DNA from: Escherichia coli
Lineage (GTDB): Bacteria > Pseudomonadota > Gammaproteobacteria > Enterobacterales > Enterobacteriaceae
Reading direction: 5' to 3' (one strand)
NCBI RefSeq assembly: GCF_017348835.2
Contig: NZ_CP071375.1
DNA length: 64,000 nucleotides
In this document: positions 1 to 11,046 of the stretch, piece by piece
How the letters are laid out: each line of letters starts with the position of its first letter
How positions within the stretch are numbered: the first letter of the stretch is position 1
The notes under the pieces: model-generated
Told to the model about the DNA's origin: nothing
What the model saw: only the letters and a program-made list of their open reading frames with translations
Database searches by the model: none
Program-made: the position numbers and the translations under genes

Positions 1-1
1 G

Positions 2-1114
2 GTGGAAGGCAAACTGATCGACAAAGTGGGCCAGTTAGGCAAAAAGCTGCATACCGGGCGTAGTCGTAATGATCAGGTAGCGACTGACCTGAAACTGTGG
101 TGCAAAGATACCGTTAGTGAGTTACTGACGGCTAACCGGCAGCTGCAATCGGCGCTGGTGGAAACCGCACAAAACAATCAGGACGCGGTCATGCCAGGTT
201 ACACTCACCTGCAACGCGCCCAGCCGGTGACGTTCGCGCACTGGTGCCTGGCCTATGTTGAGATGCTGGCGCGTGATGAAAGCCGTTTGCAGGATGCGCT
301 TAAGCGTCTGGATGTCAGCCCATTAGGCTGTGGCGCGCTGGCGGGAACGGCTTATGAGATCGACCGTGAACAGTTAGCTGGCTGGCTGGGCTTTGCTTCA
401 GCGACCCGTAACAGTCTCGACAGCGTTTCTGACCGTGACCACGTGCTGGAACTGCTTTCTGCTGCCGCTATCGGCATGGTGCATCTGTCGCGTTTTGCTG
501 AAGATCTGATTTTCTTTAACACCGGCGAAGCGGGGTTTGTGGAGCTTTCTGACCGCGTGACTTCCGGTTCATCATTAATGCCGCAGAAGAAAAACCCGGA
601 TGCGCTGGAGCTGATTCGCGGTAAATGCGGTCGGGTGCAGGGTGCGTTAACCGGCATGATGATGACGCTGAAAGGTTTGCCGCTGGCTTACAACAAAGAT
701 ATGCAGGAAGACAAAGAAGGTCTGTTCGACGCGCTCGATACCTGGCTGGACTGCCTGCATATGGCGGCGCTGGTGCTGGACGGCATTCAGGTGAAACGTC
801 CACGTTGCCAGGAAGCGGCTCAGCAGGGTTACGCCAACGCCACCGAACTGGCGGATTACCTGGTGGCGAAAGGCGTACCTTTCCGCGAGGCGCACCATAT
901 CGTGGGTGAAGCGGTGGTGGAAGCCATTCGTCAGGGCAAACCGCTGGAAGATCTGCCGCTCGACGAGTTGCAGAAATTCAGCCCGGTGATTGGCGAAGAT
1001 GTCTATCCGATTTTGTCGCTGCAATCGTGCCTCGACAAGCGTGCGGCAAAAGGCGGCGTCTCACCGCAGCAGGTGGCCCAGGCGATTGCTTTTGCGCAGG
1101 CGCGGTTGGGGTAA
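2..1114 (+). CDS. argH: argininosuccinate lyase, C-terminal 370 codons (5' end outside the window)
   Basis: ORF open at the window edge; fumarate-lyase signature [12 protein letters not shown]; sits directly upstream of oxyS/oxyR as in E. coli. Confidence 0.92.
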
Positions 1115-1176
1115 GAACATTTATATGTACAAATTTGAGCCTGGCTTATCGCCGGGCTTTTTTATGGCAAAAAAAA

Positions 1177-1285
1177 GCGGATCCTGGAGATCCGCAAAAG
1201 TTCACGTTGGCTTTAGTTATTCGAGTTGAGAAACTCTCGAAACGGGCAGTGACTTCAAGGGTTAAAAGAGGTGCCGCTCCGTTTC
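1177..1285 (-). ncRNA. oxyS: OxyS small regulatory RNA (about 109 nt)
   Basis: Minus-strand sequence reads GAAACGGAGCGGCACCTCTTTTAACCC...GCGGATCTCCAGGATCCGC followed by a U-run, matching OxyS as I remember it; divergent from oxyR. Confidence 0.85.
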
Positions 1286-1380
1286 TGTGAGCAATTATCA
1301 GTCAGAATGCTTGATAGGGATAATCGTTCATTGCTATTCTACCTATCGCCATGAACTATCGTGGCGATGGAGGATGGATA
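1286..1380. promoter_or_regulatory. oxyR/oxyS divergent promoter region with expected OxyR operator
   Basis: Short intergenic space between the oxyS 5' end and the oxyR start; inferred from conserved locus organisation, exact sites not mapped. Confidence 0.5.
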
Positions 1381-2298
1381 ATGAATATTCGTGATCTTGA
1401 GTACCTGGTGGCATTGGCTGAACACCGCCATTTTCGGCGTGCGGCAGATTCCTGCCACGTTAGCCAGCCGACGCTTAGCGGGCAAATTCGTAAGCTGGAA
1501 GATGAGCTGGGCGTGATGTTGCTGGAGCGGACCAGCCGTAAAGTGTTGTTCACCCAGGCGGGAATGCTGCTGGTGGATCAGGCGCGTACCGTGCTGCGTG
1601 AGGTGAAAGTCCTTAAAGAGATGGCAAGCCAGCAGGGCGAGACGATGTCCGGACCGCTGCATATTGGTTTGATTCCCACGGTTGGACCGTACCTGCTACC
1701 GTATATTATCCCGATGCTGCACCAGACCTTTCCAAAGCTGGAAATGTATCTGCATGAAGCACAGACCCACCAGTTACTGGCGCAACTGGACAGCGGCAAA
1801 CTCGATTGCGTGATCCTCGCGCTGGTGAAAGAGAGCGAAGCATTCATTGAAGTGCCGTTGTTTGATGAGCCAATGTTGCTGGCTATCTATGAAGACCACC
1901 CGTGGGCGAACCGCGAATGCGTACCGATGGCCGATCTGGCTGGGGAAAAACTGCTGATGCTGGAAGATGGTCACTGTTTGCGCGATCAGGCAATGGGTTT
2001 CTGTTTTGAAGCCGGGGCGGATGAAGATACACACTTCCGCGCGACCAGCCTGGAAACTCTGCGCAACATGGTGGCGGCAGGTAGCGGGATCACTTTACTG
2101 CCTGCGCTGGCTGTGCCGCCGGAGCGCAAACGCGATGGGGTTGTTTATCTGCCGTGCATTAAGCCGGAACCACGCCGCACTATTGGCCTGGTTTATCGTC
2201 CTGGCTCACCGCTGCGCAGCCGCTATGAGCAGCTGGCAGAGGCCATCCGCGCAAGAATGGATGGCCATTTCGATAAAGTGTTAAAACAGGCGGTTTAA
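1381..2298 (+). CDS. oxyR: LysR-family oxidative stress regulator OxyR (305 aa)
   Basis: Protein begins [22 protein letters not shown]; the ORF-track start at 1351 is an upstream extension. Confidence 0.95.
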
Positions 2299-3681
2299 AC
2301 CGTTTAACGCAGCTACCCGATAGGCTTCCGCCATCGTCGGGTAGTTAAAGGTGGTGTTGACGAAGTACTCAATAGTGTTGCCGCCACCTTTCTGTTCCAT
2401 AATCGCCTGACCGATATGAATAATTTCGGCAGCGCGCTCGCCAAAGCAGTGAATGCCCAGAATCTCTTTTGTTTCCCGATGGAACAAAATTTTCAGCGTG
2501 CCCACGTTCATGCCGACGATTTGTGCACGTGCCAGATGTTTAAACTGGGCGCGGCCCACTTCATATGGCACTTTCATCGCGGTCAGCTGCTGTTCGGTTT
2601 TGCCCACAGAGCTGATTTCCGGGATGGTGTAAATGCCGGTAGGGATATCTTCAATCAGATGCGCGGTGGCTTCGCCTTTTACCAGCGCCTGCGCGGCAAT
2701 GCGCCCCTGGTCATAGGCCGCTGATGCCAGGCTCGGATAACCAATCACGTCGCCCACCGCGTAAACGTGCGGCTGTGCGGTCTGATACATGCTGTTGACC
2801 TTCAGCTGTCCGCGACTGTCAGTTTCCAGCCCAATGTTCTGTAACGCCAGCGAATCGGTATTACCGGTACGACCGTTGGCATAGAGCAGGCAGTCAGCTT
2901 TCAGTTTTTTACCCGACTTCAGATGCATGATCACACCGTCGTCACAGCCTTCGATCTTCTCGTACTCTTCGTTGTGGCGAATCACTACGCCACTGTTCCA
3001 GAAGTGATAGGAGAGAGAATCTGACATCTCTTGATCGAGAAATGCCAGCAGGCGATCGCGGGTGTTGATCAGATCCACTTTTACATCCATACCGCGGAAG
3101 ATCGACGCATATTCACAGCCGATCACTCCAGCACCATAGATAAGTACATGGCGCGGTTCGTGGTGCATGCTAAGAATTGAGTCGCTGTCGTAAATGCGTG
3201 GATGGGTGAAATCAACATCTGTTGGATGATATGGACGAGAGCCGCAGGCAATAACAAATTTTTCAGCGGTTAGTGTTTCAACGCTGCCGTCCGGGCAATC
3301 CAGCGCCAACGTATGCTCGTCAACAAAGCGAGCGTTCCCCTGCAATATTTCACAGTGATTACGTTCGTAAAATCCCTGACGCATGCGCGTTTGTTGATTA
3401 ATCACGTTATCGGCATGGTTAAGGATATCGGCAAAAGAAGAGCGGAGCAGTCGGGAATGGTCGCTGTATAGTGGGTTTTGATTGAATTCTATAATGCGGC
3501 TGACGGCGTGACGGAGAGCTTTCGACGGGATGGTGCCCCAGTGGGTGCAACCGCCGCCAACATTTTGATAACGCTCGATAACTGCGACGCGCGCACCTTG
3601 CTTAACCAGGCCCATTGCAGCGCCTTCGCCGCCGGGGCCGGAACCTATTACTATGGCATCGTAATCGTAGGAATGTGGCAT
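2281..3681 (-). CDS. sthA: soluble pyridine nucleotide transhydrogenase (466 aa)
   Basis: FAD/NAD-binding motif [12 protein letters not shown]; convergent with oxyR with an 18-nt overlap. Confidence 0.93.
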
Positions 3682-4010
3682 GGTAGGGCTTACCTGTTCT
3701 TATACATAAAAGCAACAGAATGGTAACATTTTATCGCGGGTAAGCCAATTGATCCCCGTCATTAATCTGGCTATAGCGTGAGCGGCCTTTGCTTTGTCTG
3801 CCTCCTTCTTAACTTATTTATTCACTATTAATCGCTTTTTCTTATGGCTGATAGTTTTATCTTGCCGAAGCGTGCTTTTTTGTTATTGTCTTTATGAAAT
3901 CTTCTTATAAAACAAATATATAAATATTTTATATTGATGGGTTATTTGTATTTATACCATCAATAAAATCCGTTAATTAGCCTGTTTATAAGTGAATAAA
4001 GGAATAGCCG

Positions 4011-5177
4011 ATGATCGAACACTATATTCGAGGGTTTGAGGAAGAACTGCGTGAGATCCGCCATCAGATCCACGAAAACCCGGAGCTGGGATTACAGGAA
4101 TTTAAAACCAGTGCTTTGGTAGCGGAAAAGCTGCGCCAGTGGGGTTATGAGGTTGAGCAAGGGCTGGCGACAACCGGCGTGGTAGCCACGTTAAAAGTGG
4201 GCGACGGAGAGAAAAGTATTGGCCTGCGGGCGGATATGGATGCGTTGCCGATTTATGAAAATAGTGGCAAGCCCTGGGCCAGTAAACATCCTGGTTTAAT
4301 GCACGCCTGCGGGCATGACGGGCATACCACCATACTGCTGGGGGCCGCGCGTTATTTTGCCGAAACCCGCCGTTTTAACGGCACGTTACGTCTTATCTTC
4401 CAGCCTGCGGAAGAGATGATTAACGGCGGTGAGATCATGGTTAAAGAGGGGCTTTTTGATCGTTTCCCCTGCGATGTCATTTTCGGCATGCATAACATGC
4501 CCGGTCTGCCGGTGGGTAAGTTTTATTTCCAGCCAGGGGCACTGATGGCGTCAATGGATCAGTTCCATATTACGGTTCGTGGTTGTGGCGGACACGGTGC
4601 GATCCCGCACAAAGCCATCGATCCGGTGCTGGTTGCCGCACATATCACTACCGCATTACAAAGCATTGTGTCGCGCAATGTCGATCCGCTGGAAGCGGCG
4701 GTAATTACCGTTGGCAGCATTGTTGCAGGGGAGGCGGCTAACGTCATTCCTGACAGTGCTGAGATGAAAATCAGCGTCCGCTCTCTTAGCCGCGATACCC
4801 GACAACTTCTTCTGACCCGTATTCCTGCTTTGGCACAGGCCCAGGCTGCCAGCTTTGGTGCTACGGCTGAGGTTACGCATGTTAACGGTACACCGGTATT
4901 AGTGAATGACGAGGAGATGGCGCGCTTCGCCTGGCAGGTGGCGTGTAAAACGTTTGGTGAAGATCGGGCCGAGTTTGGCATCAAGCCCCTGATGGGCAGT
5001 GAGGATTTCTCTTTCATGCTGGAAGCCCAACCCAAAGGCGGTTTCCTGTTATTCGGTAATGGCGATGTCGGGGAGGGTTCCTGCATGGTGCATAACCCGG
5101 GTTACGACTTCAACGATGCAAGTCTGGTCCCGGCAAGCAGCTACTGGGGCGCACTGGTAGAAGCCTGGCTGCAATAA
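4011..5177 (+). CDS. M20/M20D-family amidohydrolase (hippurate hydrolase / N-acyl-amino-acid amidohydrolase-like), 388 aa
   Basis: Metal-ligand context HACGHDGHT and overall M20D-like sequence; AT-rich upstream region; substrate cannot be told from sequence. Confidence 0.8.
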   Translation: MIEHYIRGFEEELREIRHQIHENPELGLQEFKTSALVAEKLRQWGYEVEQGLATTGVVATLKVGDGEKSIGLRADMDALPIYENSGKPWASKHPGLMHACGHDGHTTILLGAARYFAETRRFNGTLRLIFQPAEEMINGGEIMVKEGLFDRFPCDVIFGMHNMPGLPVGKFYFQPGALMASMDQFHITVRGCGGHGAIPHKAIDPVLVAAHITTALQSIVSRNVDPLEAAVITVGSIVAGEAANVIPDSAEMKISVRSLSRDTRQLLLTRIPALAQAQAASFGATAEVTHVNGTPVLVNDEEMARFAWQVACKTFGEDRAEFGIKPLMGSEDFSFMLEAQPKGGFLLFGNGDVGEGSCMVHNPGYDFNDASLVPASSYWGALVEAWLQ

Positions 5178-5220
5178 ATAAAAAAACAACACAACAACTC
5201 TTTATGGCAAGGAATATGGA

Positions 5221-6541
5221 ATGACGGCGATCGTAAATGAAAGCGTGAGTGTGAAGAAAAAGCCTAGTGGCAGGCGGGTGATTTTTGCTTCGGCGTTTGG
5301 CAATGCGCTCGAATTTTTTGATTTTGGCGTTTACAACTTTTTTGTGGTCTATATCAGTACGCTATTTTTCCCGCCCAGCGCTGATCACAATGTCGCGCTG
5401 TTACTGGCATTTGCAACGTTTGGCGTGAGTTTTTTTATGCGCCCGCTTGGTGGAATTATCGTCGGGGCCTGGGCCGATCGTTTCGGACGCAAACCCGCGA
5501 TGGTGTTCACCATTGCCCTGATGAGCCTCGGCACGTTGATGATTGGCATTGCGCCGACGTATGAAACGGCGGGCTATTGGGGAACCGCGACGCTGGTGCT
5601 AGCGCGTCTAATTCAGGGCGTTGCGGCAGGAGGCGAAGTCGGTGCCTCAATGTCTTTGTTGGTTGAATCAGCTCCGGCAAATCGTCGCGGCTTTTACAGC
5701 AGTTGGTCACTGGCGACTCAAGGCCTGGCAACAACCTTTGGTGGTGTTGTCGCTTTAGGTTTAAGTGCATGGCTGCCCTTTGCGACAGGTTCAGAAACCG
5801 TAATGGCTGAATGGGGCTGGCGTGTGCCATTTTTTATTGGCGTGTTATTAGCACCTATCGGTTGCTGGTTGCGTCTGAGCCTGGAAAATGACGTGCCTGA
5901 GCCTGCCTGTGCGCAATAAAAAAGCTGCTACCAGCGAAAGCGCGTTTTCTCTGCTCCTGCAACATAAGGCGACTATCGTTAATGGCGTTTTACTCGCTAT
6001 TGGTAGCACGGTCGCAACCTATATCTCCCTCTTTTATTACGGCACCTGGGCGGCGAAGTATCTGGCGATGCCTCAACATTATTCTCATGCAGCGATGTTA
6101 CTGGCGGGCGTTATTACGTTTGTGGGTGCGCTGCTTGTGGGGATGTTGTGCGATTCGGTCGGGCGTAAAAAGCTGATTTTAATCTCCCGTGTGATGGTGC
6201 TGATCTGTAGCTGGCCGTCATTCTGGCTGTTGGTGAATTACCCAAGCCCAGGCATGTTGCTGACGGTGGTTTTCGTGATGGTCAGCTTTACCACGCTTGG
6301 CGGTGTGCCAGTGATGTTGTTGATCTCTGAACTGTTGCCGAAACGGATTCGGGCATTGGGTTTTGCGCTGGTTTATAGCATTGGTGTGGCAATCTTTGGC
6401 GGTTTTGCTCAATATTTCGCTACGCAATCCATCGTGTTGCTGGATAGTTTGACGGCTCCGGCGTGGTATTTGGGTGGAGGCACGTTGCTGTCGATGTTGG
6501 CGTTGTTGTACGTAAAAGAACCGGCCAAAGAATTGCAGTAA
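5221..6541 (+). pseudogene. MHS-family MFS transporter (ShiA/KgtP/ProP-like) interrupted by a frameshift; two ORFs 5221-5919 and 5888-6541
   Basis: N-terminal ORF has MFS motifs (RPLGGIIVGAWADRFGRK, ARLIQGVAAGGEVG); C-terminal ORF continues the 12-TM architecture in the +1 frame; the frames overlap at 5888-5919 next to an A6 run. Confidence 0.7.
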
Positions 6542-6647
6542 ATATGTTTTATTGCGTTACCGTTCATTCACAATACTGGAGCAATCCAGTATGTTCATTC
6601 TCTGGTATAGTGCCAGCAGTACTTTTGGCAAGGATTCAGACATCGTG

Positions 6648-7295
6648 ATGGGCGTAAGAGCGCAACAAAAAGAAAAAACCCGCCGTTCGCTGGTGGAAGC
6701 CGCATTTAGCCAATTAAGTGCTGAACGCAGCTTCGCCAGCCTGAGTTTGCGTGAAGTGGCGCGTGAAGCGGGCATTGCTCCCACCTCTTTTTATCGACAT
6801 TTCCGCGACGTAGACGAACTGGGTCTGACCATGGTTGATGAGAGCGGTTTAATGCTACGCCAACTCATGCGCCAGGCGCGTCAGCGTATCGCCAAAGGCG
6901 GGAGTGTGATCCGCACCTCGGTCTCCACATTTATGGAGTTCATCGGTAATAATCCTAACGCCTTCCGGTTATTATTGCGGGAACGCTCCGGCACCTCCGC
7001 TGCGTTTCGTGCCGCCGTTGCGCGTGAAATTCAGCACTTCATTGCGGAACTTGCGGACTATCTGGAACTCGAAAACCATATGCCGCGTGCGTTTACTGAA
7101 GCGCAAGCCGAAGCAATGGTGACAATTGTCTTCAGTGCGGGTGCCGAGGCGTTGGACGTCGGCGTTGAACAACGTCGGCAATTAGAAGAGCGACTGGTAC
7201 TGCAACTGCGAATGATTTCGAAAGGGGCTTATTACTGGTATCGCCGTGAACAAGAGAAAACCGCAATTATTCCGGGAAATGTGAAGGACGAGTAA
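6648..7295 (+). CDS. fabR: TetR-family fatty-acid biosynthesis repressor FabR (215 aa; a 234-aa form would start at 6591)
   Basis: Protein [20 protein letters not shown]... with TetR HTH; ORF-track start 6552 is an upstream extension. Confidence 0.9.
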
Positions 7296-7654
7296 TGAAA
7301 CAAGCAAATCAAGATAGAGGTACGCTGCTGCTGGCGTTAGTTGCTGGCTTATCGATTAATGGTACTTTCGCAGCGCTGTTTAGCTCCATTGTGCCATTTT
7401 CTGTATTCCCGATTATTTCCCTGGTGCTGACGGTTTATTGCCTGCATCAACGTTATCTTAATCGCACTATGCCGGTAGGCTTGCCGGGTCTGGCAGCTGC
7501 CTGTTTTATTCTCGGCGTACTGCTGTACAGCACGGTAGTTCGTGCGGAATATCCGGATATCGGCTCTAACTTCTTCCCGGCAGTACTCTCCGTCATTATG
7601 GTGTTCTGGATTGGCGCGAAGATGCGTAACCGTAAGCAGGAAGTTGCTGAGTAA
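7295..7654 (+). CDS. yijD: small inner-membrane protein YijD (119 aa)
   Basis: Hydrophobic 119-aa ORF overlapping the fabR stop. Confidence 0.85.
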
Positions 7655-7662
7655 TCGGTATC

Positions 7663-7689
7663 ATGCCGGATGCTGGCGCATCCGGCATG
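7663..7689. terminator. bidirectional hairpin (REP-like) between convergent yijD and trmA
   Basis: Inverted repeat ATGCCGGATGC-TGG-CGCATCCGGCAT. Confidence 0.6.
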
Positions 7690-7693
7690 GGTT

Positions 7694-8794
7694 TTACTTC
7701 GCGGTCAGTAATACGCCGCACTCCATATGGTGCGTGTAGGGGAACTGATCAAACAGAGCCAGACGTTCGACCTTGTGCGTCTGGCTTAATGTTTCCAGAT
7801 TCTTGCATAACGTTTCCGGATTGCAGGAGATATACAGAATACGTGGATACGCCTGCACCATTTTCTCGGTTTCACTGTCCAGACCGCTGCGCGGCGGGTC
7901 GACAAAAATGGTTTCGCACTGATAGCTCTTTAAGTCGATCCCTTGCAGGCGGTTAAACTCGCGCACACCATTCATCGCCTGAGTAAATTCTTCTGCCGCC
8001 ATACGAATAATTTGTACGTTATCAATATGGTTAGCGGCAATGTTGTATTGCGCGGCAGCGACCGACGGCTTGGCGATTTCGGTGGCTAATACCCGATCAA
8101 AATTGCGCGCCAGGGCTAATGAGAAGTTACCGTTGCCGCAGTACAGCTCCAGTAAATCGCCTTTTGAGCCTTTGGTTACGTCCAGCGCCCATTCCAGCAT
8201 CTGAATATTCATCGCCGCGTTCGGCTGGGTAAAGCTGTTTTCTACCTGACGGTAGATCATCTCTTTCCCTGCGACCGGCAGACGTTCGTCGATGTAATCT
8301 TGATCCAGCGCGATTTTGGTTTTCGTTGCCCGACCAATCAGATGCACATTCAGATTCTGTGCTCGCAGTGCATCGCGCAGGGCTTCCGCTTCCTGACGCC
8401 ACTCATCATTCAGCTTTTTATGGTACAGCAAGGAAACCACCGCCTGATTACTCAGCGTGGTGAGGTAATCAATCTGGAACAACTTGTGGCGCAGAACGGG
8501 ATTATTACGCACACCCGCAATCATCGCCGTCATCAACTGGTTGATGAGTTCACTGGCGGCGGGGAAGCTATCCACGCGGATACGGCTTTTGGTTTGTTGA
8601 TCGAAAATGATGTGATACAGGTCATCGCCATCGTGCCAGATGCGGAACTCCGCACGCATCCGGTAATGACTGACCGGCGAGCGAAACACTTCCGGAACCA
8701 GGTCAGAAAACGGTGCCATCATACTTTGCAAACGTACCACTTTTTCGGCTAACTGCGCTTCATACTGTTCTGTTGGAAGGTGTTCGGGGGTCAT
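7694..8794 (-). CDS. trmA: tRNA (uracil54-C5)-methyltransferase (366 aa)
   Basis: Full-length ORF of expected size and position with SAM-methyltransferase features. Confidence 0.93.
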
Positions 8795-8921
8795 GATGTA
8801 TCCTGAAAAATTAAAGTACGCGGCGATTGTAGGGATTGCTCATCAGATGTCCAGATCTTGATGAATTCCTATTTGTGAGCTACGTCTGGACAGTAACTTG
8901 TTACAACCTGTAGCATCCACT

Positions 8922-9162
8922 TGCCGGTCCTGTGAGTTAATAGGGAATCCAGTGCGAATCTGGAGCTGACGCGCAGCGGTAAGGAAAGGTGCGATGATTG
9001 CGTTATGCGGACACTGCCATTCGGTGGGAAGTCATCATCTCTTAGTATCTTAGATACCCCTCCAAGCCCGAAGACCTGCCGGCCAACGTCGCATCTGGTT
9101 CTCATCATCGCGTAATATTGATGAAACCTGCGGCATCCTTCTTCTATTGTGGATGCTTTACA
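8922..9162 (+). promoter_or_regulatory. btuB leader containing the adenosylcobalamin (B12) riboswitch
   Basis: Leader reads GCCGGTCCTGTGAGTTAATAGGGAATCCAGTGCGAATCTGGAGCTGACGCGCAGCGGTAAGGAAAGGTGCGATGATTGCG...GCCGGCCAACGTCGCATCTGGTTC, the btuB B12 element; boundaries approximate. Confidence 0.85.
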
Positions 9163-11046
9163 ATGATTAAAAAAGCTTCGCTGCTGACGGCGTGTTCTGT
9201 CACAGCCTTTTCTGCTTGGGCACAGGATACCAGCCCGGATACTCTCGTCGTTACTGCTAACCGTTTTCAGCAGCCAGTAAATACTGTCCTTGCACCTACT
9301 GATATTGTTACCCGTGAGGATATTCAACGCTGGCAGTCGAAAGACCTCAACGATGTTATGAGTCATCTCCCCGGTGTAAATATCTCTCAAACTGGTGGAA
9401 TGGGGACGAGTTCTTCTCTTTATGTTCGTGGCACTGAATCGCGCCATGTTTTAGTGTTGATTGACGGTGTGCCGATGGCTCGTGCCGGTATCGACAATGC
9501 AATTGATATTAGCCAGTTCCCGGTATCACTTGTACAGCGTGTTGAATATATTCGTGGGCCGCGTTCTGCCGTTTATGGTTCTGGTGCCATCGGAGGTGTG
9601 GTGAACATTATTACAATGAGTAATGATGAGAAAGCTCAGATCAACGCAGGAATGGGTACAAATGGTTATCAAGCCTATGATGGGGTAATAAATAAACGTT
9701 TTGGCGATACGATGGTAACAGCAGCAGGTGCTTACCAGACGACCAAAGGTTTTAACATTCAGCCTGGCTCACCATACAGTGGTGATAGCGATCGCGATGG
9801 ATATCGCAACAAACTTTTCTGGGGGGGGCTGCAGCATAAGTTTAACGATAACTTCTCGGGGTTCTTCCGTGGTTACAGCTACACAGCTAATAATGATTAC
9901 GACCAGGGCTCGATGTATGGTTCTGCTACTGGCAACGAAGAAGCTCAGAATTACAACCAGTCCTGGGATACTGGCCTACGCTATAACTCCGGCATCTATT
10001 CGTCTCAGTTAATTGCTAACTATCAACGACTCAAGAATTATAACTACACAAATAATCTTGGTCGTTATGCGGGAGATGCCACCCTGGATGACATGGAACA
10101 GCGTTATATTCAGTGGGGTAATAGCATTGAGGTAGGGCATGGTGCAATTAGCGGCGGGATCGATTGGAAACAGGAAAAACTGACGTCCAGCAGCATTACA
10201 AAATCAGATGATTACGAACGCGATACCACCGGGTTATACCTGACTGGACAGCAACAGATTTCCAATGTGACTTTGGAAGCTTCTGGCCGAGAAGATCATG
10301 ATGAACAGTTTGGCTGGCATGGTACCTGGCAGACAGCTGCTGGCTGGGAGTTTATTGATGGCTACCAGGCAACACTTTCTTACGGTACCAGTTTTCTTTC
10401 GCCTTCTCTTGGACAGCAATACGGGGCTGCTCGCTTTGCTTCAATTTATGGTCCTGGTATTGCAGCCAACCCAAATTTGAAGCCAGAAGAATCTAAACAG
10501 TGGGAGATTGGAATTGAGGGGGTAACTGGGACTCTGGATTGGCGGCTCTCAGGATATCGTTATGAAATTCAGAACCTGATTGATTATAAAAGCATAAATA
10601 ATGTCAACCAGTACATTAATGTGAAATCAGCCACGATTAAAGGGCTGGAATGGACGGGAAATATTACAACCGGTCCTGTTGAACATCGCTTGACGTTACA
10701 ATATGTTGACCCGCGCGATGATGAAACAGATAAAGTGCTGTACCGTCGGGCAAAACAGCAGGTTAAGTACGAGTTGACTGGACAAGCTTATGGTTTCGAA
10801 TGGGACGTTTCTTACCAATATATAGGTCAACGATACGACAACGCTTATGACGAGACCTCTGGCTCATCACATACAGTTAAATTAGGCGGTGTGAGCTTGT
10901 GGGATCTTGCGGTTGCGTATCCGGTCACCTCTCACCTGACAGTTCGTGGTAAAATAGCCAACCTGTTCGACAAAGATTATGAGACAGTCTATGGCTACCA
11001 AACTGCAGGACGGGAATACACCTTGTCTGGCAGCTACACCTTCTGA
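9163..11046 (+). CDS. btuB: TonB-dependent outer-membrane vitamin B12 receptor (about 627 aa here)
   Basis: Signal peptide MIKKASLLTACSVTAFSAWA, TonB box DTLVVTA, C-terminal aromatic residue; ORF-track start 9118 is a leader extension. Confidence 0.93.
   Translation: MIKKASLLTACSVTAFSAWAQDTSPDTLVVTANRFQQPVNTVLAPTDIVTREDIQRWQSKDLNDVMSHLPGVNISQTGGMGTSSSLYVRGTESRHVLVLIDGVPMARAGIDNAIDISQFPVSLVQRVEYIRGPRSAVYGSGAIGGVVNIITMSNDEKAQINAGMGTNGYQAYDGVINKRFGDTMVTAAGAYQTTKGFNIQPGSPYSGDSDRDGYRNKLFWGGLQHKFNDNFSGFFRGYSYTANNDYDQGSMYGSATGNEEAQNYNQSWDTGLRYNSGIYSSQLIANYQRLKNYNYTNNLGRYAGDATLDDMEQRYIQWGNSIEVGHGAISGGIDWKQEKLTSSSITKSDDYERDTTGLYLTGQQQISNVTLEASGREDHDEQFGWHGTWQTAAGWEFIDGYQATLSYGTSFLSPSLGQQYGAARFASIYGPGIAANPNLKPEESKQWEIGIEGVTGTLDWRLSGYRYEIQNLIDYKSINNVNQYINVKSATIKGLEWTGNITTGPVEHRLTLQYVDPRDDETDKVLYRRAKQQVKYELTGQAYGFEWDVSYQYIGQRYDNAYDETSGSSHTVKLGGVSLWDLAVAYPVTSHLTVRGKIANLFDKDYETVYGYQTAGREYTLSGSYTF

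Follow-up and report, generated by a model that had tools for sequence, protein, structure and literature searches.

Two core genes, sthA and fabR, which lie next to each other in K-12-type genomes of Escherichia coli, are separated by 2,963 bp in the 64,000-nucleotide stretch of E. coli DNA analyzed here (the window), as against 330 bp in a K-12-type genome. This raises the question of whether the 2,633 bp of extra DNA were gained by one lineage or lost by the other. The original prediction had put the excess at about 2.6 kb, in agreement with this measurement, and had read it as an insertion relative to K-12. Positions 3801-6541 of the window constitute an operon of two genes, the first for an M20D amidohydrolase and the second for a putative MHS-type proton symporter, preceded by an AT-rich control region belonging to the operon itself (Table 1). 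Taken as a whole, the locus is quite probably best explained as an old N-acyl amino acid operon that was deleted from K-12-type genomes, is silenced through its AT-rich region and carries a split transporter in the window strain.

The locus is already annotated and already present in the literature, and there is nothing mechanistically new in it. The same two genes occupy the same sthA-fabR locus in strain CFT073 (c4924-c4926; C_RS23275/C_RS23280) and in the ECs4892/4893 region of O157 Sakai, with 94-97% nucleotide identity to the window, and are named "M20 aminoacylase family protein" and "citrate-proton symporter" in RefSeq. The window differs from these loci in having a rare allele, with a transporter gene that is split by a private 4-bp duplication. 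The c4924-c4926 locus was previously listed as the UPEC-associated "SAC no. 14" (PMC2831201). The value of the present finding is corrective: K-12 is not the ancestral reference at sthA-fabR, and what would be called a "strain-specific island" here is an old genus-level operon, deleted in most laboratory-type E. coli.

Table 1. Coordinates of features at the sthA-fabR locus (window positions)
Feature	Coordinates	Strand	Remarks
sthA (soluble pyridine nucleotide transhydrogenase)	2281..3681	-	466-aa ORF; annotated in PE164, O157 and K-12-type records; left core flank
Spacer segment common with K-12-type genomes	3682..3800		116/119 identical to K-12-type spacer
AT-rich upstream region of operon, putatively regulatory	3801..4010	+	27% GC; absent from K-12-type genomes
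Inverted repeat TTATATTGATGG-N16-CCATCAATAAAA	3929..3968		12-nt arms, 92% complementary; candidate operator within AT-rich region
M20D-family amidohydrolase/aminoacylase	4011..5177	+	388 aa, intact; Pfam M20 and M20_dimer, TIGR01891
MHS-like MFS transporter, N-terminal half	5221..5919	+	TM1-6, native residues 1-227 plus ACAQ and stop; ended early by frameshift
Transporter, C-terminal half	5888..6541	+	MTCLSLP plus native residues 228-438, TM7-12; separate overlapping ORF
4-bp tandem duplication (GCCT GCCT)	5897..5904	+	Extra copy aligned at 5901-5904; shifts transporter frame in central cytoplasmic loop
Last 35 nt of transporter ORF, including TAA	6507..6541	+	100% identical in K-12-type genomes; right edge of deletion scar
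fabR upstream region	6542..6644	+	Salmonella and Klebsiella homology resumes at ~6564
fabR	6645..7295	+	RefSeq-style GTG start at 6645; right core flank

Origin of the K-12-type arrangement

The short spacer of K-12-type genomes retains both ends of the island. Its positions 1-119 correspond to window 3682-3800 and its positions 193-330 to window 6507-6644, the latter at 100% identity and including the final 35 nt of the transporter ORF, down to its stop codon. The tail encoded by this stretch (..VKEPAKELQ, then the stop) aligns with the ..KETAGRAID terminus of homologous Burkholderiales transporters and is thus native to the transporter family; RefSeq likewise places the 35 nt within the "citrate-proton symporter" CDS of island-bearing genomes. 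At the opposite end, outgroup alignments show that window ~3682-3760 is homologous to the sthA-fabR spacer of Salmonella and Klebsiella, and that ~3761-3800 is an Escherichia-specific segment forming the left edge of the island, which is kept in the scar. The Salmonella and Klebsiella spacers (~170 bp) lack the operon and also ~150 extra bp present in K-12. The deletion took window 3801-6506 and left a 73-bp filler in addition to both island edges. This filler gave no significant match in blastn-short searches of the window or of the corresponding loci from PE164, O157, E. albertii and CFT073, nor in Smith-Waterman comparison with shuffled controls (best score 32 versus 23.5 +/- 3, the reverse strand scoring the same), and is absent from the Salmonella and Klebsiella spacers. 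Its presence means that something more than a simple excision in one step took place.

The accessory status of the pair in E. coli, as originally predicted, is confirmed by the BLASTN presence/absence comparison proposed with it: the operon is far from universal, being found in 1,505 of 5,426 complete E. coli genomes (28%), with one common scar in 3,918 of the 5,426 (72%). Presence here means that at least 80% of the query is covered, the remaining genomes matching the edges alone. The particular allele of the window is rare, with 2 of the 5,426 genomes matching it at >=99%. Beyond E. coli, the operon is syntenic at sthA-fabR in E. albertii and in one E. fergusonii chromosome. Between E. coli and E. 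albertii the M20 gene is 92.8% and the MHS gene 88.4% identical, a divergence matching that of the flanking core genes sthA (91.4%), oxyR (89.5%) and fabR (94.2%), and dN/dS of both operon genes is 0.01-0.05. The retention of the island termini in K-12, taken together with the synteny and species-level divergence of the operon in E. albertii and E. fergusonii, shows that K-12 carries a deletion, and the predicted insertion relative to K-12 is accordingly not upheld. On these sequence comparisons, the operon entered the sthA-fabR spacer before E. albertii, E. fergusonii and E. coli separated, and it has since been inherited under purifying selection, with the K-12-type juxtaposition of sthA and fabR representing a later deletion. 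The common junctions, rather than a tree, point to a single deletion event. The operon genes have been described as absent in some D and F strains and present in B2 and E strains (PMC2831201), a patchy distribution which suggests that the two alleles have been moved by recombination. The island genes also show an excess of dS within the species, for which introgression is a possible source.

Recent horizontal gain of the operon, with foreign DNA inserted by an unspecified route into an ancestral and empty K-12-like spacer, would be favored by the lack of the pair in Salmonella, in Klebsiella and in 72% of E. coli genomes, by the AT-rich block at one island edge, and by the nature of the nearest relatives. 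Among the best 80 genome matches there are no further Enterobacteriaceae, the next after E. albertii being a betaproteobacterium at 63% identity; with the nearest non-Escherichia relatives in this set being Betaproteobacteria at <=63%, the genes must once have been acquired from a source outside the Enterobacteriaceae. A recent date for this event is contradicted by the 35 nt of transporter ORF with their family-native tail and the left island edge retained in K-12, by a K-12 spacer ~150 bp longer than that of the outgroups, and by the synteny and species-level divergence seen in both E. albertii and E. fergusonii. It is also at odds with composition: coding GC is 52-54%, GC3 56-58% and codon usage like that of the flanks, such that the comparison of GC content and codon usage originally proposed shows a native composition of the coding DNA. 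Mobility genes and plasmid copies are equally lacking. We therefore reject the recent-insertion model, which we regard as extremely improbable in the light of the scar termini, the native tail, the E. albertii divergence, the outgroup spacers and the native composition.

No integrase or transposase ORFs were found in the window, and the upstream spacer (3682-4020) is free of direct repeats, in keeping with the earlier statement that such boundaries are not visible; a deletion in K-12 explains their absence. A search of 72,556 PLSDB plasmid records recovered no copy of the operon, the only match being 66 bp to an Agrobacterium M20 gene, and plasmid carriage was rejected on this basis. With no mobility ORFs, a native composition, no PLSDB copy and one constant chromosomal position across three species of Escherichia, the locus does not qualify as a mobile genomic island.

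The enzyme, its transporter partner and their likely substrate

The first gene of the operon encodes a member of peptidase family M20, subfamily M20D, with the inserted dimerisation domain and with curated thresholds passed throughout. The HMM searches proposed with the original M20D assignment support it, the 388-aa ORF matching PF01546 Peptidase_M20 (4e-44, 151 bits versus a cutoff of 24.6), PF07687 M20_dimer (8.5e-13, 48.6 bits versus 21) and TIGR01891 "amidohydrolases" (359 bits versus 153.75). The nearest solved structures are those of B. subtilis YxeP (1ysj, 1e-71), Arabidopsis ILL2 (1xmb) and AgaA (6slf), the Corynebacterium N-alpha-acyl-glutamine aminoacylase. With these and the S. aureus dipeptidase 4ewt the enzyme aligns over its full length (E 1e-71 to 2e-64) and shares the metal- and catalytic-site motifs MHACGHDGH, QPAEE, FGMH and HNP, whose residues are all aligned and identical in type. 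The gene shows dN/dS values of 0.014-0.05. The substrates of solved M20D enzymes vary widely, including N-acetylated cysteine derivatives, auxin-amino acid conjugates, acyl-glutamines and dipeptides; hence similarity at the level of YxeP, ILL2, 6slf or 4ewt does not fix the substrate. M20D pockets of similar fold accept very different substrates. Among NCBIfam models, the enzyme does not reach the equivalogs CpsA (336 versus a cutoff of 500) or DoeB2 (322 versus 550), and no equivalog for HipO (EC 3.5.1.32) is among its matches. The labels "hippuricase" and "hippurate hydrolase" in databases are annotation names only, and identity to characterized M20D enzymes is moderate only. In a protein search with the enzyme, the 120 matches listed were all E. 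coli variants at 99-100% identity and were uninformative with regard to donors or characterized relatives.

The transporter was characterized through its intact 438-aa version in PE164, the nearest relative of the window. It matches Sugar_tr and MFS_1, and its best NCBIfam family is the metabolite/H+ symporter (MHS, TC 2.A.1.6) model TIGR00883 (E 1.8e-96; residues 27-416 on positions 1-392 of the 400 in the model). The HMM search originally suggested thus supports the MFS assignment and gives MHS as the best-matching family. Its score of 323.7 bits falls below the curated TIGR00883 cutoff of 443.45, and the TcuC/CitA subfamily is likewise not reached (NF011656, 286 bits versus a cutoff of 445). 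Because both scores lie under the curated cutoffs, the MHS subfamily of the transporter is not firmly assigned.

The association of the two genes extends well beyond Escherichia, with M20D and MHS genes lying side by side in the same orientation in at least 9 distant loci of Burkholderiales, Pseudomonas and other Proteobacteria, a recurrence in unrelated loci which makes the functional unit of hydrolase and importer originally envisaged a reasonable one. A divergent LysR regulator lies upstream in 4 of the 5 distant-locus neighbors tested. In the Escherichia operon, a spacer of 43 nt without a terminator separates the genes, which together with the recurrent adjacency argues for one function. 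On the basis of these contextual and family-level analyses, the operon is likely to serve in taking up an N-acyl amino acid and hydrolyzing it. The symporter would import such a compound in anionic form, or else a comparable carboxylate with an amide linkage, hippurate-like compounds being the leading candidates, and the metal-dependent M20D enzyme would cleave the amide bond to release an amino acid and an organic acid as nutrients.

A comparable arrangement is known in E. coli K-12 itself, where abgABT combines an M20-family amide hydrolase with an importer devoted to p-aminobenzoyl-glutamate, which is likewise an N-acyl amino acid. It differs from the present operon in that its transporter belongs to the AbgT family rather than the MFS, its hydrolase has two subunits and it lies at another locus; kinship is only distant, the "aminobenzoyl-glutamate utilization protein" structure 3io1 matching the M20D enzyme at 1.7e-35. 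[quoted passage not shown] Its LysR gene has a counterpart in the divergent LysR of the Burkholderiales relatives of the E. coli pair. The gene order in P. putida is reversed, with the transporter upstream of hipO, and the Escherichia operon lacks a LysR gene.

Alternatively, the pair might not be an N-acyl amino acid system at all, the transporter being a citrate/tricarboxylate symporter and the M20D enzyme either an unrelated peptidase, acting as dipeptidase or carboxypeptidase, or a deacylase with a biosynthetic role. The RefSeq product name "citrate-proton symporter", the rank of TcuC (286 bits) as top NCBIfam model apart from the general TIGR00883, the inclusion within M20D of carboxypeptidases (CpsA, 336 bits) and of the S. 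aureus dipeptidase 4ewt, and the placement of c4924-c4926 under "citrate metabolism" in a comparative-genomics paper (PMC2831201) all speak in its favor. However, the TcuC score is far under its cutoff and no citrate-specific equivalog is reached, neither citrate-lyase nor tricarboxylate catabolic genes are found near the operon, and the characterized LysR/MFS/HipO module of P. putida is a hippurate system. The tight and recurrent coupling of the two genes also disfavors unrelated roles. We consequently consider the citrate alternative unlikely and prefer an N-acyl amino acid system.

The AT-rich control region and regulation

Ahead of the operon, GC content falls to 25-37% over 3700-4100. Thus, the AT-rich block noted in the original prediction is indeed present; it is 96% identical between E. 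coli and E. albertii. The block is better conserved than the adjoining coding DNA and is 96-98% identical among E. coli and E. fergusonii alleles, a degree of conservation that points to a constrained regulatory region rather than a foreign one. The candidate operator within it differs by one arm base in other alleles. A sigma-70 consensus scan of 3700-4010 detected no promoter at the scan threshold, the sole promoter-like site lying on the fabR side (6567-6595). An RNA element in the leader was rejected, as there was no relevant Rfam match and the RNA fold was not significant (z = -1.2).

No regulator gene belongs to the Escherichia operon, whose upstream region displays the AT-richness of an H-NS-silenced promoter (27% GC over 3801-4010 versus 52% for the whole window). 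In CFT073, c4924, the "putative hippuricase", was among the top five genes induced on overexpression of TosR, an AT-rich-DNA-binding regulator, with a log2FC of 6.6, or about 100-fold (PMC5956150). This gene is the M20D gene of the sthA-fabR locus. Composition and this one overexpression study are consistent with a scheme in which H-NS-type silencing would act at the AT-rich promoter region, with PapB-family proteins such as TosR relieving it.

The operon is under strong purifying selection in the B2/UPEC, ST131 and O157 lineages, and its control region is highly conserved. Given these features, it would make a small but sensible subject for functional study, for instance of whether hippurate or another N-acyl amino acid is used in urine or the gut. 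Hippurate is abundant in urine. A more far-reaching and rather doubtful proposal is that the operon represents an ancestral Escherichia capacity for scavenging a host-derived N-acyl amino acid, with hippurate as candidate, silenced by H-NS through the unusually well conserved AT-rich region and turned on by adhesin regulators of the PapB family such as TosR, its retention or loss reflecting niche adaptation. If true, nutrient use and adhesin expression would be under joint control, and this capacity would have been retained in B2/UPEC and O157 and lost from K-12-type lineages.

A private 4-bp duplication splits the transporter of the window

Across 8 kb, the sole indel between the window and PE164 is a 4-bp duplication that splits the transporter in its central loop, hydropathy placing it between TM6 and TM7. 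It is private to the window sequence: a 43-mer spanning it occurs in 0 of the 5,426 genomes, and the unduplicated 39-mer matches PE164 and F2_81. Intact alleles, as in PE164, O157 and CFT073, encode 438 aa with a 6+6 hydropathy pattern, and the window version is not a single 12-TM polypeptide, being split after residue 227 of 438. The operon module in the window strain is therefore probably impaired, with both halves persisting as complete ORFs.

We lean towards the view that the module is dead through abolition of the transporter, as suggested by the premature stop after residue 227 and the weak ribosome-binding context of the second transporter ORF. Alternatively, the TM1-6 and TM7-12 halves might both be made and assemble into a working permease; the break falls exactly in the central loop with zero native residues lost, and the second ORF begins at an ATG overlapping the end of the first. 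A precedent would be lac permease, which Bibi and Kaback are said to have found functional as N6 and C6 halves in 1990. As the duplication is private to the window sequence, selection has not had time to reveal whether it is tolerated. The frameshift could also be an assembly error or artefact, in which case the gene would be intact. The original prediction had missed that the transporter is not one ORF in the window.

Gene content of the sthA-fabR interval

The interval between sthA and fabR spans 2,963 bp in the window versus 330 bp in the K-12-type chromosome L003, confirming that 2,633 bp of extra DNA with two additional genes is present at this position. The AT-rich block expected ahead of these genes is also real, with a GC content of 27% over 3801-4010 against 52-54% for both genes. 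The genes are already annotated, belong to well-known families and feature in comparative and transcriptomic papers, making this a real but ordinary finding; what is added here is the polarity of the event, the conservation of the control region, the finding that the same gene pair recurs across Proteobacteria, and an apparently private frameshift.

Layout of the locus in the window and correspondence of the K-12-type spacer
Feature	Position in window	Remarks
argH'	within 1-11,000	leftmost gene
oxyR	1381-2298	
sthA	2281-3681	minus strand
spacer	between sthA and the 388-aa ORF	
388-aa ORF	4011-5177	M20D amidohydrolase
two overlapping ORFs	5221-5919 and 5888-6541	split transporter
fabR	start 6645	GTG start
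yijD, trmA, btuB	within 1-11,000; btuB 9160-11046	in that order after fabR; btuB on plus strand
K-12 spacer 1-119	3682-3800	97% identical
K-12 spacer 120-192		73 bp without any match
K-12 spacer 193-330	6507-6644	100% identical

The M20D assignment of the first ORF is upheld by matches to Peptidase_M20, M20_dimer and TIGR01891 (359 bits; cutoff 154). Among solved structures it is closest to YxeP, ILL2, an N-acyl-glutamine aminoacylase and a staphylococcal M20 peptidase, and it keeps all of the metal-site motifs. The E. albertii NBRC 107761 version (L004 7156-7158) has a stop three codons early (..LVEA*LQ*), yielding 385 rather than 388 aa. The transporter belongs to the MFS, and its best family is indeed that of the metabolite:H+ symporters (TIGR00883, E 1.8e-96), as the original prediction of an MHS transporter held, but it scores below the curated cutoff of that model. 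Its score is also under the TcuC/CitA cutoff; RefSeq names the two products "M20 aminoacylase family protein" and "citrate-proton symporter", and the "citrate" in the latter is not supported by the scores against curated models.

While the MFS affinity of the predicted single transporter gene stands, a break in its reading frame had been overlooked. Relative to PE164, a pig isolate that is the nearest relative and otherwise differs by one SNP over the 8 kb compared, the window contains a 4-bp tandem duplication at 5897-5904, which ends the frame after native residue 227; residues 228-438 continue in a second ORF started at an overlapping ATG. The break sits between TM6 and TM7, in the central loop, and leaves every native residue in place. 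None of the 5,426 complete E. coli genomes matches a 43-mer across the duplication, while the unduplicated 39-mer recovers PE164 and F2_81, indicating that the search works. The duplication is either private to this sequence or an assembly error.

Polarity and age of the event

The two genes had been predicted to be an insertion relative to K-12, a polarity that sequence comparison reverses. The third piece of the K-12 spacer begins within the transporter ORF, so that C-terminal codons and the stop codon are still present in K-12. This tail is native to the transporter gene, since Burkholderiales transporters adjoining M20D genes end in ..KETAGRAID* in the same register. The Salmonella and Klebsiella sthA-fabR spacers are ~170 bp long, and their homology to Escherichia ends near window 3760 and restarts at 6564; hence K-12 has ~150 bp that are missing from these outgroups, both ends of which are the island's own ends. 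By these alignments the K-12-type spacer is a deletion scar rather than an empty site, with the operon anciently resident in the genus and deleted in K-12-type strains. The 73-bp filler (L003:2620-2692, in place of window 3801-6506) is single-copy in E. coli and finds no match in the window, island included, or in the Salmonella and Klebsiella spacers. In one scar-type genome (NZ_CM130001.1) an IS481-family transposase sits in the sthA-fabR spacer.

The island occupies the same site in 1,505 of 5,426 complete E. coli genomes, including UTI89, CFT073, ST131, APEC O1 and O18, E2348/69, O157:H7 and O145. The scar, with an identical 73-mer and junctions, is found in 3,918, among them K-12, W/KO11 and many more; only 3 genomes have neither. 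A 2010 synteny survey had already recorded CFT073 c4924-c4926 in E2348/69 and four UPEC strains but not in K-12, HS, 042 or SMS-3-5; O157 was likewise scored as lacking them (PMC2831201), which the genome scan and the O157 locus examined here contradict. As anticipated, signs of mobility are missing: there is no integrase among the window ORFs near the locus, no direct repeat in the upstream spacer (3682-4020) and no plasmid copy in PLSDB. Two island-query matches in the RefSeq E. coli set lie on records labelled plasmids.

In a scan with one genome per species, E. albertii alone, apart from E. coli, gave a close match (97% amino-acid identity); the next was a betaproteobacterium at 63%, and no other Enterobacteriaceae were among the best 80 genome matches. 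The order sthA, M20, transporter, fabR is the same in E. albertii and in one E. fergusonii chromosome. Identities between E. coli and E. albertii (M20 92.8%, transporter 88.4%) are in the range of the flanks (sthA 91.4%, oxyR 89.5%, fabR 94.2%, trmA 92.7%), and GC3 and codon usage of the operon resemble those of the flanks. Both genes are under selection, with dN/dS of 0.01-0.05, comparable to trmA. The simplest history would begin with a single acquisition, on the Escherichia stem, from a source outside the family, continue by vertical descent under selection and end with a later deletion.

Within E. coli, the synonymous divergence of the island genes is three to six times that of the flanking genes (dS of 0.26-0.46 for the transporter and 0.11-0.17 for M20 versus 0.01-0.07 for sthA and 0.06-0.12 for trmA; between O157 and CFT073, 0.46 for the transporter and 0.07 for sthA). 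For E. coli against E. albertii, these four genes have similar dS. The alleles are also mosaic, as in window 6000-6099, where identity reaches 100% with E. albertii but only 87% with O157. This excess divergence, taken together with the mosaicism, suggests old allelic lineages or introgression.

Control region and predicted function of the gene pair

The AT-rich block (3801-4010) shows 96% identity when E. coli is compared with E. albertii and 96-98% across the alleles of E. coli and E. fergusonii, and is better conserved than the adjoining coding DNA (dS 0.2-0.7). Over the first 82 bp adjoining sthA, the five sequences compared do not differ. The AT-rich leader contains an inverted repeat with 12-nt arms (3929-3968); no Rfam family, significant RNA fold or consensus promoter was detected in it. 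The CFT073 enzyme gene c4924 (C_RS23275), located at this same locus, is among the five genes most induced on overproduction of TosR (log2FC 6.6). TosR belongs to the PapB family of regulators; it has a predicted affinity for AT-rich DNA and a presumed role in counteracting silencing by H-NS and Lrp (PMC5956150). Given this induction and the conserved AT-rich leader, it is reasonable to infer silencing via this region. ECs4893, a Sakai gene of the region, rises 2.1-fold at a growth transition (PMC2241611).

In the window 43 nt separate the two genes, a gap that has a ribosome-binding site and lacks a terminator. In at least 9 of the loci compared, from Burkholderia, Paraburkholderia, Pseudomonas and other genera, the M20D gene is followed on the same strand, within ~100 bp, by an MHS homologue (36-45% identity), and in 4 of the 5 cases examined the gene upstream of the pair encodes a divergent LysR regulator. 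No catabolic genes consistently accompany the pair among these loci, and the module therefore looks self-contained. A characterised analogue in P. putida KT2440 comprises the LysR regulator PP_2701, the MFS protein PP_2703 and the HipO enzyme PP_2704; in Escherichia no regulator gene accompanies the operon. Purified PP_2704 prefers hippurate over N-acetyl-alanine, and PP_2701 is induced by hippurate (bioRxiv 10.64898/2025.12.09.693157). The family assignment, the pairing of the genes and the selection on them are demonstrated by these data. Taken together, the recurrence, self-containment and close spacing of the pair and the P. putida analogue point to an operon that would take up an anionic N-acyl amino acid and hydrolyze its amide bond inside the cell, with both substrate and direction of transport predicted by analogy; hippurate is the leading, albeit unproven, candidate.

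Variation in the flanking genes

Upstream of fabR, window 6573-6592 forms a perfect hairpin or palindrome with 8-bp arms, ATACTGGA-GCAA-TCCAGTAT, which overlaps a promoter-like site (6567-6595) and is only partly conserved in Salmonella and Klebsiella. In CFT073 the argH-oxyR interval contains a further accessory pair, manD with an MFS transporter (L083 25451-28015), which is missing from the window at the corresponding 1115-1380. The btuB gene (GC 46%, GC3 43%) is a highly divergent allele with only 56% protein identity to the BtuB of CFT073 and K-12-type strains, conservation being confined to the N-terminal signal/TonB-box region and the final ~45 residues. It looks like a cassette-like replacement of a phage/colicin receptor. 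Its interior is present at 99% identity or more in 283 of the 5,426 complete E. coli genomes; in the others megablast does not detect it. The allele occurs in island-bearing and scar-bearing backgrounds alike.
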